Below, in pieces: positions 37,222 through 42,973 of a stretch of DNA of 64,000 nt. A program made the position numbers and the translations under genes. Numbering within the stretch: position 1 is the first letter of the stretch; every line of letters starts with the position of its first letter. Where the stretch lies: the NCBI RefSeq assembly GCF_036507355.1, contig NZ_AP027877.1; one strand, 5' to 3'. The notes under the pieces were generated by a model. It had not been told where the DNA came from, searched no databases, and saw only the letters and a list, made by a program, of their open reading frames with translations. The stretch is from Escherichia coli. GTDB taxonomy: Bacteria; Pseudomonadota; Gammaproteobacteria; Enterobacterales; Enterobacteriaceae.

Positions 37222-37956
37222 ATGTCCAAACTCGATCTAAACGCCCTGAACGAACTGCCGAAGGTAGATCGCATTCTGGCGCTGGCGGAAACTAACGCCC
37301 AACTGGAAAAATTGGACGCTGAAGGCCGCGTAGCCTGGGCGCTGGATAATCTGCCCGGTGAATATGTGCTTTCTTCCAGCTTCGGCATTCAGGCGGCGGT
37401 GAGCCTGCATCTGGTGAATCAGATTCGCCCGGATATTCCAGTGATCCTCACCGATACCGGTTACTTGTTCCCGGAAACCTACCGCTTTATTGACGAGTTA
37501 ACGGACAAACTCAAGCTCAACCTGAAAGTGTACCGTGCTACCGAAAGCGCAGCCTGGCAGGAAGCACGCTACGGCAAACTGTGGGAGCAGGGCGTTGAAG
37601 GCATTGAAAAGTACAATGACATCAACAAAGTCGAACCGATGAACCGGGCGCTGAGAGATCTGAATGCGCAAACGTGGTTTGCTGGCCTGCGCCGCGAACA
37701 ATCCGGCAGCCGCGCCAATTTACCGGTGCTGGCAATTCAGCGTGGCGTATTTAAAGTGCTGCCGATTATCGACTGGGATAACCGAACGATATATCAGTAT
37801 CTGCAAAAACATGGCCTGAAATATCACCCATTATGGGACGAAGGATATTTATCGGTGGGCGATACCCATACAACCCGTAAATGGGAACCCGGCATGGCGG
37901 AAGAAGAAACGCGTTTCTTTGGCTTAAAAAGGGAATGTGGGTTACACGAAGGGTAA
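37222..37956 (+). CDS. cysH: Phosphoadenosine phosphosulfate reductase
   Basis: 244-aa product starting [14 protein letters not shown] inside the longer track ORF. Confidence 0.9.
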
Positions 37957-38219
37957 ATATTGCCGGATAAATTAAACGCCTCTGTCAGAAATGATGGGGG
38001 CGTTTTTATTTTGCGAGCAGCATTCCTGATTTTAAACGTGAACGCCGCTGGAAGAATTATCAGGTATAGAATGGCGTCGGGTGCTTGAGGCTGTCTGGCG
38101 TTAAGCATTCGCGAGGTTCCAGATGGACAAAAGCCCCAGGCGATATTTCTATCAACCTGAGGCTCGCGTTCGAACGTAGCAATTCGGATGTTAGTCTCTT
38201 CTTTGCAGGGAGGCAAGAC

Positions 38220-38372
38220 ATGCTAACAAAATATGCCCTTGTGGCAATCATAGTACTGTGTTGTACAGTACTGGGATTCACGCTCATGGTAGGCGACTCG
38301 TTATGTGAGTTGAATATCAGAGAGCGTGGTATGGAGTTTAAGGCAGTTCTCGCTTACGAATCGAAGAAGTAG
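38220..38372 (+). CDS. Hok/Gef-family type I toxin (50 aa)
   Basis: [50 protein letters not shown]: single TM segment then the SLCE..IR…AYES.K signature; AGGGAGG RBS 7 nt upstream. Confidence 0.75.
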
Positions 38373-38761
38373 CCACCACGTGGGGGTAAAACCCCGCGTA
38401 TTGAATTGTGATGGTTTGGTCTCCTGCACCCTTTTTTAAATTTATATTTTTTATGTGAATATATTGTCTCTATTTATTATTATGAATTTCAAATGAAAAT
38501 CATAAATTTATTCACAATATAAATGTTTTATTGGCTGATATATATCACAGATAATTTTTAAAATATGCGTAAATATCCTTTAAGTTTACTGAAGGATAAA
38601 AATATTGTGACTTTCTTTGATTTCTGGGGAAAAACCCGACGCGACGAGAAAGAAGGGGGTGACGACTATCACCTTCTTTGCTGGCATTCGCTGGATGTGG
38701 CCGCGATGGGCTATTTAATGGTTAAAAGAAATTGCTTCGGGCTGGCGGTAATGACTCCAAC

Positions 38762-39265
38762 TTATTGATAGTGTTTTATGTTCAGATAATGCCCGATGAC
38801 TTTGTCATGCAGCTCCACCGATTTTGAGAACGACAGCGACTTCCGTCCCAGCCGTGCCAGGTGCTGCCTCAGATTCAGGTTATGCCGCTCAATTCGCTGC
38901 GTATATCGCTTGCTGATTACGTGCAGCTTTCCCTTCAGGCGGGATTCATACAGCGGCCAGCCATCCGTCATCCATATCACCACGTCAAAGGGTGACAGCA
39001 GGCTCATAAGACGCCCCAGCGTCGCCATCGTGCGTTCACCGAATACGTGCGCAACAACCGTCTTCCGGAGCCTGTCATACGCGTAAAACAGCCAGCGCTG
39101 GCGCGATTTAGCCCCGACATAGCCCCACTGTTCGTCCATTTCCGCGCAGACGATGACGTCACTGCCCGGCTGTATGCGCGAGGTTACCGACTGCGGCCTG
39201 AGTTTTTTAAGTGACGTAAAATCGTGTTGAGGCCAACGCCCATAATGCGGGCTGTTGCCCGGCAT
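38762..39265 (-). CDS. insB: IS1 InsB (expressed as InsAB' by a -1 frameshift)
   Basis: 167-aa ORF overlapping insA in the -1 frame. Confidence 0.9.
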
Positions 39266-39459
39266 CCAACGCCATTCATGGCCATATCAATGATTTTCTG
39301 GTGCGTACCGGGTTGAGAAGCGGTGTAAGTGAACTGCAGTTGCCATGTTTTACGGCAGTGAGAGCAGAGATAGCGCTGATGTCCGGCGGTGCTTTTGCCG
39401 TTACGCACCACCCCGTCAGTAGCTGAACAGGAGGGACAGCTGATAGAAACAGAAGCCAC
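39184..39459 (-). CDS. insA: IS1 InsA
   Basis: 91-aa [26 protein letters not shown]…. Confidence 0.9.
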
Positions 39460-41451
39460 TGGAGCACCTCAAAAACACCATCATACACTAAATCAGTAAG
39501 TTGGCAGCATCACCCGGGCTGGCTGATTATTTTCGTCAATTAGGGATTTCTGACAAGGAACAGGCGGCTCAATTTTTCGCCTGGTTGTTGTGCTGGCACG
39601 ATATTGGAAAATTTGCCCGCTCATTTCAGCAACTTTACCTGCACCCACAACTCAAGGTTCCGGAAGGCGCAAGAAAGAATTACGAAAAGATCTCTCATTC
39701 AACGCTGGGCTACTGGTTGTGGCATCATTATTTAAGTGAATGCGAAGAATTGCTTCCTGCCTCTTCACTCTCTACTCGCAAACTTAAACGTGTAATAGCG
39801 ATGTGGATGCCCATGACTACCGGGCATCATGGTCGGCCCCCTGACCGTATTGATGAACTGGATAATTTTCTGCCTGAAGACAAAGTTGCCGCGCGAGATT
39901 TTCTCCTTGAAATCAAGGCACTGTGTCCGCTCATAGAGATTCCCACATTCTGGGATAATGACGAGGGAGTTGAACTTTTAAAACAACTTTCCTGGTATAT
40001 CTCTGCAACAGTCGTACTTGCAGACTGGACGGGTTCGTCAACGCGATTTTTTCCACGCGTCGCACACCCAATGGATATTAAAGATTACTGGCAGAAAACT
40101 TTAGTTCAGGCTCAAAACGCCTTAACCGTCTTTCCTCCAAAAGCAGAAACCGCACCTTTCACCGGAATTAATACGCTGTTTCCTTTTATTGAGCACCCGA
40201 CACCATTACAGCAAAAGGTGCTGGATCTGGATATCAGCCAGCCAGGGCCACAGTTATTTATTCTGGAAGACGTGACTGGCGCAGGTAAAACAGAAGCGGC
40301 GCTTATCCTGGCGCACAGGTTGATGGCTGCGAGGAAAGCACAGGGTTTGTTTTTTGGCCTGCCAACAATGGCAACGGCCAATGCCATGTACGATCGGCTG
40401 GTCAAAACCTGGCTTGCTTTCTATTCGCCAGAGTCCCGCCCCAGCCTGGTGCTGGCACACAGTGCCCGCACATTAATGGACCGCTTTAATGAATCACTCT
40501 GGTCCGGTGATTTAGTCGGGTCAGAAGAACCGGATGAACAAGCGTTCAGTCAAGGATGTGCAGCCTGGTTTGCCGACAGTAACAAGAAGGCTTTACTGGC
40601 TGAAATTGGCGTCGGCACGCTGGATCAGGCGATGATGGCGGTGATGCCGTTCAAACATAATAATCTGCGGCTTCTGGGGCTGAGTAACAAAATCCTGCTG
40701 GCTGATGAGATCCACGCCTGTGACGCTTACATGTCATGCATTCTTGAAGGGCTGATCGAGCGGCAGGCGCGTGGTGGAAACAGCGTCATTTTGCTTTCTG
40801 CTACGTTATCCCAACAGCAGCGCGACAAACTCGTCGCCGCCTTTGCGCGTGGCACAGAGGGCCAGCAAGAAGCTCCGTTCCTTGAAAAGGATGATTACCC
40901 CTGGCTGACGCATGTCACGAAATCCGATGTGAACTCACACCGGGTAGCGACGCGCAAAGACGTTGAGCGTAGCGTCAGCGTGGGTTGGCTTCATAGTGAA
41001 CAAGAGAGTATTGCGCGTATCGAATCGGCGGTAAGTCAGGGAAAATGCATCGCCTGGATCCGCAATTCTGTCGATGACGCTATTAAGGTTCATCGTCAGC
41101 TGCTTGCCCGCGGCGTCATTCCCGCTTCCAGCCTTTCACTCTTTCATAGCCGCTTTGCTTTTAGCGATCGCCAGCGAATCGAAACGGAAACGCTGGCACG
41201 CTTTGGTAAAAATTGTAATTTAAAAAGATCATCGCAAGTCATTGTTTGTACACAAGTAATTGAGCAAAGTGTGGATATTGACCTGGACGAAATGATCTCC
41301 GACCTTGCCCCCATTGATTTGCTGATCCAGCGAGCGGGGCGATTACAGCGACATATCCGCGATATTAATGGTCAGTTAAAGCGTGACGGAAAAGACGAGC
41401 GTTCCCCTCCTGAATTGCTGATTCTGGCCCCCGTCTGGGACGACGCTCCTG

Positions 41452-41781
41452 GTGACGAATGGTTCGGCAGTGCCATGCGTACGCGCCTTTACAGAGGCCG
41501 CGCTTAAAGTCTCACCAACCGGAAAACAAAACAGCTTTGCCAGCCGTGCCTACGCCTCCTGGGCGCTGGCGGAAAAAGGCACTGTTCAACCGCGTTCTCT
41601 GGCGGCGGCTTTCTATGAACCCATTAATGGTACCCGTCAGTTAGATGTGGCGGTGCAGCGTATTACAACGCTTCGCGAAAACATGAATACGGTCTACGAA
41701 CAGAAGACTGAATGCGCAAGTTTTGACGTGATGAACAAACAGGGAAGCATGAAGGACGTACTGGACTTTATCTGCGCGTAA
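41452..41781 (+). pseudogene. 3' remnant of a cas gene, most plausibly the end of cas7/casC fused out of frame to cas3
   Basis: 109-aa frame ending 10 bp before the cas5 ATG, the position casC occupies in an intact I-E operon; the alternative reading is a frameshifted cas3 tail. Confidence 0.4.
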
Positions 41782-41791
41782 GGGGCGGCTT

Positions 41792-42973
<1,182 letters not shown>

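Follow-up and report, generated by a model that had tools for sequence, protein, structure and literature searches.

The hok/sok family is the textbook type I toxin-antitoxin system, and its R1 representative, hok/sok (parB), is plasmid-borne and stabilizes its plasmid. By contrast, hokX, the member considered here, is chromosomal and has no demonstrated phenotype. The name hokX was given to the gene at the cysH-iap region, which was first seen in E. coli B (PMC7232551), and a pair made of hok and sokX adjoins cysH in 90% of urinary isolates (PMC12736100). Toxicity was seen in 42 of the 45 Hok homologues tested in one study (bioRxiv 10.1101/2025.08.07.668861), and Pedersen and Gerdes (1999), as cited in later work, found that chromosomal hokA, hokB, and hokC gave no post-segregational or rifampicin-induced killing.

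R1 hok/sok and hokX share the order of their parts, with a tac-type element at the 5′ end of the mRNA followed by a leader that holds both the Sok target and the antisense promoter. In both, the −35 box of sok lies over the hok Shine-Dalgarno region, a G+C-rich hairpin stands just after the stop codon, and a fold-back element is found about 60 nt beyond that stop. However, the R1 Hok peptide is only 40% identical to HokX, and R1 possesses a mok ATG at −57, in frame, together with a separate terminator hairpin after the fold-back element, neither of which is present in hokX. The closest paralogue is hokE/sokE, with about 79% DNA identity to hokX over unit positions 53 to 296 and 40 of 50 peptide residues identical (80%), compared with 32 to 48% peptide identity for HokA, HokB, HokC, and R1 Hok. 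Although hokE and hokX occupy different genomic sites (ybdK-entD and cysH-cas3, respectively), they are alike in lacking a canonical mok ATG, in having an ATG at −97 to −100 preceded by GAGG or AGG, and in carrying UACG at codon 46.

We analyzed a 64,000-nucleotide stretch of E. coli DNA (contig NZ_AP027877.1, assembly GCF_036507355.1), hereafter called the window, and conclude with a probability of about 90% that its region from 38079 to about 38437 is hokX/sokX, a type I toxin-antitoxin locus of the E. coli chromosome. The hokX ORF lies between cysH, which ends at 37956 and is followed by a terminator at 37974-38005 in our promoter/terminator scan, and cas3, which starts at 38565. Both this genomic position (cysH-iap/cas3) and the leader are those of hokX/sokX in other E. 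coli strains. An initial annotation of the window had recognized an intact Hok-family toxin ORF between cysH and cas3, and profile matches in Pfam and Rfam as well as synteny bear this out; it named the family correctly, but it missed that the locus is the already known hokX/sokX. Likewise, the span it proposed, 38085 to 38400, corresponds to a real locus, but the true unit is slightly larger, extending from about 38067 (the −10 box) or 38079 (the predicted 5′ end) to about 38437, where the fold-back element ends and a T-run follows. The edge of the module is placed at this same T-run, at about 38437, since strains that have cas3 downstream and those that have iap there cease to be homologous at this point. 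hokX/sokX has been described and named before, and the window copy is an ordinary, structurally intact member of a well-studied family.

The locus is widespread. A 601-base query around hokX was placed in 5425 of 5426 complete E. coli genomes, where the RefSeq annotation under the match reads "Hok/Gef family protein," and the RefSeq orthologues bearing this name sit between cysH and cas3 or iap. Coverage of the unit itself (38079-38450) is 80% or more in 4147 of the 5426 genomes (about 76%), the best matches among them reaching 99.2 to 99.5% identity. Public databases contain a peptide identical to HokX of the window under the title "Hok/Gef family protein [Escherichia coli]," and its neighbors are arranged as cysI-cysH-hok-cas3 or cysH-hok-iap. 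HokX differs from the window peptide by 0 to 3 residues in O157:H7, NRG857c, BL21(DE3), and other strains, and frameshifts and stops are absent from the 17 copies examined. K-12 MG1655 is different, in that its cysH-cas3 spacer holds only the noncoding RNA sokX (b4701); aligned with the window, K-12 has a near-identical leader as far as the hok ATG, beyond which the similarity is lost and the coding region is gone.

The hokX coding sequence occupies 38220-38372 on the plus strand, from ATG 38220 to TAG 38370-38372, and encodes 50 amino acids. Its Shine-Dalgarno sequence, GGGAGG, lies at 38208-38213, 6 nt before the ATG, in agreement with the earlier reading of a 50-codon ORF with a strong ribosome-binding site. 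The Hok/Gef signature that had been read by eye is likewise confirmed by the Pfam profile HOK_GEF (PF01848), which matches HokX over its full length (model positions 1-42 of 42; score, 39.7; E=3.7e-10). The NCBIfam HokA and Hok-family models match as well, at scores below their curated cutoffs (53.6 versus 89 and 40.1 versus 73, respectively). HokX has an N-terminal transmembrane helix, its hydrophobic stretch covering residues 5 to 24, and carries C29 in the sequence SLCEL (the LCE motif of the family, with the conserved periplasmic Cys) and Y46 in an AYES motif. With its length of about 50 residues, its profile match, its transmembrane helix, and its cysteine, HokX belongs to the Hok/Gef toxin family. 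By analogy with other Hok systems, HokX would be toxic and would be regulated by SokX.

The Y46 codon deserves separate mention. It is a TAC followed by G (UACG, 38355-38358, plus strand), in the context GCTTACGAA, which is common to hokX, hokE, hokC, and R1 hok, and it is a candidate site for A-to-I editing by TadA, through which Y46 would become C. Editing at position 46 has been reported in hokC, hokD, and hokE, where it supplies a Cys and reaches about 40% in hokE, and HokB toxicity requires a C29-C46 disulfide (PMC12214031). In TadA-edited Hok mRNAs, the UACG motif lies at the Tyr codon of position 29 or 46. The local RNA fold at the hokX UACG site is weak, no more stable than those of shuffled sequences. 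Since editing is reported in these three paralogues, since the site context is identical, and since HokX has C29, editing of Y46 in hokX is a reasonable expectation.

The segment upstream of the coding sequence (38079-38235, plus strand) matches the whole of the Rfam model RF01794, named "sok," at positions 1-157 (105.3 bits versus a gathering score of 59; E=1e-24). This model also matches hokB, hokC, hokE, R1 hok, and another hokX allele, always on the strand of the hok coding sequence; its matches lie opposite the annotated sokC, sokB, and sokE, and the model ends at the hok start region. The Rfam family named "sok" is a model of the hok-sense leader, and strand calls derived from RF01794 should be inverted. 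We had considered a sense-strand antitoxin as an explanation for the plus-strand match, but this is ruled out by the position of the model on the hok strand at every reference locus; for the same reason, the match is evidence for a hok leader. The window thus contains the conserved leader of hok mRNAs.

On the minus strand, the K-12 annotation of sokX, transferred through a sequence alignment (A1), maps to 38123-38180, with the 5′ end near 38180. The initial annotation had expected a Sok-like antisense RNA on this strand somewhere within 38100-38230, and the mapped position falls inside that interval. SokX has an unpaired 5′ tail, a long hairpin that would serve as a terminator, and a U-run, and its fold (−23.7 kcal/mol) is more stable than those of all 200 shuffled sequences (−13.3 ± 2.6 kcal/mol; 0/200 as stable; z=−4.05). 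Its putative promoter, at 38188-38217 on the minus strand, consists of a −35 box TTGCCT (38217-38212) and a −10 box TAACAT (38193-38188) separated by an 18-nt spacer. This promoter is proposed from its sequence and from its position in the family layout: the −35 box and the hok Shine-Dalgarno region overlap, an arrangement also seen in the R1-type locus (TTGCGC/TATCCT). A consensus promoter scan left it uncalled and flagged TTGCCA/TAGCAT at 38247-38220 instead. A cis-encoded antisense Sok RNA of about 60 nt, with a promoter in the leader, is therefore laid out in the window, its transcription being predicted.

The promoter of hokX itself would comprise the −10 box TAGAAT at 38067-38072 (plus strand), which has no good −35 box and lies 6 nt upstream of the predicted 5′ end of the mRNA. 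In hokA, hokB, hokC, hokE, and R1 hok, the conserved GG(G/C)(U)GC at the 5′ end is likewise preceded, at equal spacing, by a −10-like hexamer. Our consensus promoter/terminator scan did not call the hok promoter either, so that the hok and sok promoters are both putative assignments made by positional conservation only.

To place the ends of the transcript, the window was set beside seven other loci: hokX, hokA, hokC, and the two hokE copies of NRG857c, hokB of K-12, and an R1-type plasmid hok; NRG857c has no IS elements at these hok loci. In all of them, a start of the form GG(G/C)(U)GC(U/C)UGA(G/A)(G/A) is found 141 to 168 nt before the hok ATG. In the window, this is the tac-type element GGGUGCUUGAGGCU at 38079-38092 (plus strand), whose 5′ motif is identical or near-identical in all of the hok loci compared and which, as the first position of RF01794 and from minimum free energy (MFE) folds and duplex statistics, is the predicted 5′ end of the hokX mRNA. 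The element has two alternative partners: in the full-length RNA, GGGUGCUUGAGGCU pairs with a 3′ fold-back element, and the alternative is pairing with 38130-38137, which forms a 5′ hairpin. The latter is the stem-loop of the "activated" leader fold (GGG.GCUU...AAGCCCC, 38079-38137, plus strand; −23.7 kcal/mol, z=−2.29), and the RNAalifold consensus of seven hok mRNAs keeps this 5′ helix, with changes on both sides of the pairs at columns 15-63, 18-60, 20-58, and 7-71.

The 3′ partner is an fbi-type fold-back element at 38418-38437 (plus strand; GGUCUC-CU-GCACCC, then a T-run), where the full-length hokX mRNA probably ends. The duplex joins 38079-38084 (GGGUGC) to 38426-38431 (GCACCC) and 38087-38092 (GAGGCU) to 38418-38423 (GGUCUC). 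The energy of this 5′-3′ duplex, −22.3 kcal/mol, compares with −11.9 ± 2.5 kcal/mol for shuffled 3′ segments, none of 300 being as good. The fold-back element ends 58 to 64 nt after the stop codon in all eight loci compared (59 nt in the window). In the MFE fold of 38079-38440, the 5′ end is closed on the 3′ end, and shortening the RNA to 38400 or 38420 frees the 5′ hairpin. Compensatory differences accompany this pairing: GGGUGC/GCACCC in hokX corresponds to GGCGC/GCGCC in R1, C7-G in hokB and hokE to U7-A in hokC, and G12-C in hokC to A12-U in hokA and hokB. RNAalifold, run on a MAFFT alignment of the seven hok mRNAs, returned the 5′ hairpin and not the 5′-3′ closure; in this alignment, MAFFT had set the fold-back elements of hokE and R1 one column out of register. 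Because of this misregister, the fold-back was judged by duplex energies and by eye, and the compensatory changes are not a formal covariation statistic. No hairpin-plus-U terminator was found after the fold-back element in our promoter/terminator scan. The hok mRNA fold-back elements, which the initial annotation had singled out as a feature its reading depended on, are thus present by MFE folding, by duplex energy, and by the eight-locus comparison, and a tac/fbi-type closure of the hokX mRNA is what these computations predict.

RNAalifold also returned a long-range helix between columns 114-120 and 381-387 of the alignment (A2), equivalent in the window to about 38169-38175 and 38412-38418. 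This helix pairs the site of the canonical mok start with sequence immediately 5′ of the fold-back element, and several of its pairs change on both sides across paralogues. It may represent a second closure of the full-length mRNA.

The G+C-rich hairpin just after the stop codon (GGGG-N6-CCCC, 38378-38399, plus strand) is kept in all of the hok loci compared and is uninterrupted in the window. The same hairpin is a recurrent site of IS186/IS421 insertion, as seen in hokX of BL21(DE3) and CH4796 and in hokC and hokE of K-12. In BL21(DE3), the match to the window breaks off within the hairpin, at 38394, and gives way to an IS186/IS421 end; this insertion in the hokX 3′ untranslated region of E. 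coli B severs the fold-back element, and IS186 severs it likewise about 20 nt after the stop in K-12 hokC and hokE. The hokX copy of strain CH4796 also carries IS186/IS421 in its post-stop hairpin, with the fold-back element severed in the same way. No such insertion is present in hokX of the window. The initial annotation had remarked that hok loci of laboratory strains are often inactivated, which is correct for some: K-12 is without the hokX coding region, and E. coli B has IS186/IS421. We also observed that the window hairpin carries a private C-to-T change at 38381 (CCACCACGTGGGGG; the other 16 intact hokX copies that we examined have CCACCACGCGGGG), by which a C-G pair becomes U-G without loss of the helix.

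Another insertion sequence, IS1, lies nearby, at 38747-39514, flanked by a 9-bp target duplication (CGGGCTGGC, at 38738-38746 and 39515-39523). By analogy with the IS elements at hokA, hokC, and hokE of K-12 and hokX of E. coli B, we considered whether it inactivates hokX; this was ruled out by its location, since it sits within cas3 and is separated from the fold-back element and the module edge by about 310 nt, and by its own target duplication. IS1 should have no effect on the hokX module.

The neighboring type I-E CRISPR-Cas locus (38565-42973) is degenerate, its cas3 being split by this IS1. Once IS1 is removed, the gene matches full-length cas3 only to nucleotide 2140 and meets a stop after 721 codons (41505-41507). 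A Cas1-like ORF (41820-42683) and a Cas2-like ORF (42680-42973) directly follow the truncated cas3, so that the Cascade genes appear to have been deleted, and iap and cysD come next. In GCA_905398585.1, the same 721-amino-acid cas3 product adjoins an identical Hok peptide. Since hok genes are not enriched near defense systems, the proximity of hokX to cas3 is probably incidental.

The mechanism that we propose for hokX takes its steps from R1 hok/sok and its chromosomal homologues, whereas the coding sequence, the homology of leader and peptide, and the structures, as computed, are shown by the analysis. The transcript ends, promoters, and SokX boundaries are predictions transferred from homologous loci. 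A weak promoter, with its −10 box at 38067-38072, would produce an mRNA of about 360 nt, from 38079 to about 38437. In this full-length mRNA, the 5′ end (GGGUGC..GAGGCU) would pair with 38418-38431, leaving the message closed and untranslatable. Slow 3′ trimming would then remove the fold-back element, upon which the 5′ end would refold into the 38079-38137 hairpin and the leader would open. The short, unstable SokX (38180 to 38123, minus strand) would pair with the opened leader and mark the duplex for cleavage, Hok being made only when SokX is depleted. Hok would enter the inner membrane and collapse the membrane potential. Full toxicity may also require TadA editing of codon 46 from UAC to UIC, changing Tyr to Cys and permitting a C29-C46 disulfide.

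The part of the canonical layout that hokX does not share is mok, an ORF ahead of hok that begins within the Sok target, extends to or over the hok start, and thereby couples translation. In R1 hok, hokC, and hokA, the mok ATG lies 57 to 60 nt before the hok ATG, is preceded by GAGG, and opens a frame that runs in phase into hok; in hokB, the mok ATG is at −58 and its frame overlaps hok out of phase. A start at −57 to −60 is absent from both hokX and hokE, hokX having TCG where hokB has ATG. What hokX of the window has is an 18-codon upstream ORF at 38123-38179 (plus strand), with AGG 6 nt before its ATG, which is a truncated form of a 34-codon mok-like ORF. In BL21, O26, and other strains, this ORF keeps its 34 codons and its stop TAA overlaps hok codons 2-3. 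In the window, a 1-nt deletion together with TAG 38177-38179 ends it after 18 codons, 40 nt before hok. The distal half survives as a 12-codon ORF (38188-38226, plus strand) that has no Shine-Dalgarno sequence of its own and whose TAA (38224-38226) overlaps hok codons 2-3 (ATGCTAA).

The counterpart of ATG 38123 in hokE is its ATG at −97 to −100. Whereas the window ORF stops short, the hokE ORF runs into or across hok: in K-12 and in the first NRG857c copy, it enters hok in frame (83 amino acids), and the second NRG857c copy has it in a different frame that overlaps hok (62 amino acids). NRG857c carries hokE as a tandem duplication (577301-577957) with identical peptides, and a 1-nt indel in the leader shifts the frame of the upstream ORF between the copies. 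The state of the hokX upstream ORF is also polymorphic across the 5426 complete genomes. Haplotype A, the window type, in which TAG cuts the ORF, was found in 1014 of them; haplotype B, in which TAA cuts it, in 569; and haplotype C, in which it is open, in 3181, these being counts of exact 42/43-mer matches, and that of haplotype C taking in K-12-type remnants without a hok coding region. The segment that distinguishes the haplotypes, 38163-38187, encodes the 5′ tail of SokX and its target. In the window allele, the ORF from 38123 neither reaches nor overlaps the hok start; for this reason, we lower the claim that the locus is a complete canonical hok/mok/sok system, while its identification as a gene for a Hok toxin paired with a Sok antisense RNA is unaffected. 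We found nothing relevant on mokX or mokE in the literature.

The initial annotation had located a mok-like coupling element elsewhere, in the in-frame extension of hokX to 38085; ribosomes entering there would be carried into hok and would yield an N-terminally extended Hok. Indeed, the hok frame is open in the window allele from TTG 38085 to 38372 (a 95-amino-acid ORF), and an in-frame mok is what R1 hok, hokC, and hokA have. However, this TTG is the sole start, no ATG, GTG, or TTG being present in the hok frame between 38088 and 38220; it is without a Shine-Dalgarno sequence and falls within GGGUGCUUGAGG, the conserved 5′ element, so that 6 nt separate it from the predicted start of the mRNA. 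Moreover, in hokX alleles with a 142-nt leader, the hok frame is closed by a stop 20 codons upstream and has no start, so that the open frame of the window can be regarded as a by-product of the 1-nt deletion in its haplotype. We therefore rejected the extension (38085-38219) as mok and consider this reading very improbable. The proposal that the hokX ORF is a chance ORF in an intergenic spacer, unrelated to hok, has a probability close to nil: short ORFs are common (85 are listed in 5 kb), but the Pfam and Rfam E values, the 80% identity to HokE, and the synteny and annotation kept in thousands of genomes rule it out.

The main rival to a working hokX/sokX locus accepts its structural integrity and holds that it is functionally silent, a decaying relic in which hokX is not translated and SokX has no target to repress. 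Intact structure is no guarantee of activity, since the chromosomal hok loci tested in the 1999 study, as cited in later work, gave no killing. The absence of an ATG at −57 to −60 from hokX and hokE, where R1 hok, hokA, hokB, and hokC have one, points in the same direction, as do the early end of the window upstream ORF, 40 nt before the hok ATG, the restriction of its TAG haplotype to far fewer genomes than the open form, the loss of the whole coding sequence in K-12, and the repeated insertion of IS186 at the locus. On the other hand, the peptide is highly conserved across alleles, the 17 copies having 0 to 3 substitutions and being free of frameshifts and stops; the unit is kept in about three-quarters of complete E. 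coli genomes; the fold-back and Sok elements are unbroken; and hok has its own strong GGGAGG site. We regard silence as possible but doubtful and keep to the reading of the locus as hokX/sokX, structurally intact in the window.

For hokX/sokX, the ORF from 38123 may act as a substitute for mok. Given that TAG 38177 cuts this ORF, the hokX copy of the window may be poorly translated despite its intact coding sequence, and if the ORF does act like mok, the window allele would be uncoupled. More speculatively, and with odds that we place well below even, the hokX/hokE subfamily could have swapped the canonical mok for a coupling ORF that starts about 40 nt further upstream, at an ATG located in the 5′ hairpin, on its 3′ arm, and that, irrespective of frame, remains open as far as the hok start or beyond it. 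E. coli is polymorphic for this ORF, and the haplotypes could be natural on/off or specificity variants of hokX control.

As a named locus carried by most E. coli, hokX/sokX adds little weight beyond a correct annotation, and the polymorphic mok-like ORF of the hokX/hokE subfamily is the only possibly new angle. Since the window copy has no IS186 and keeps all of its RNA elements, it would be a reasonable choice for experiments on a chromosomal hok locus. The absence of a canonical mok start, together with the polymorphic substitute ORF, offers a concrete and testable explanation for the possible silence of some chromosomal hok loci.
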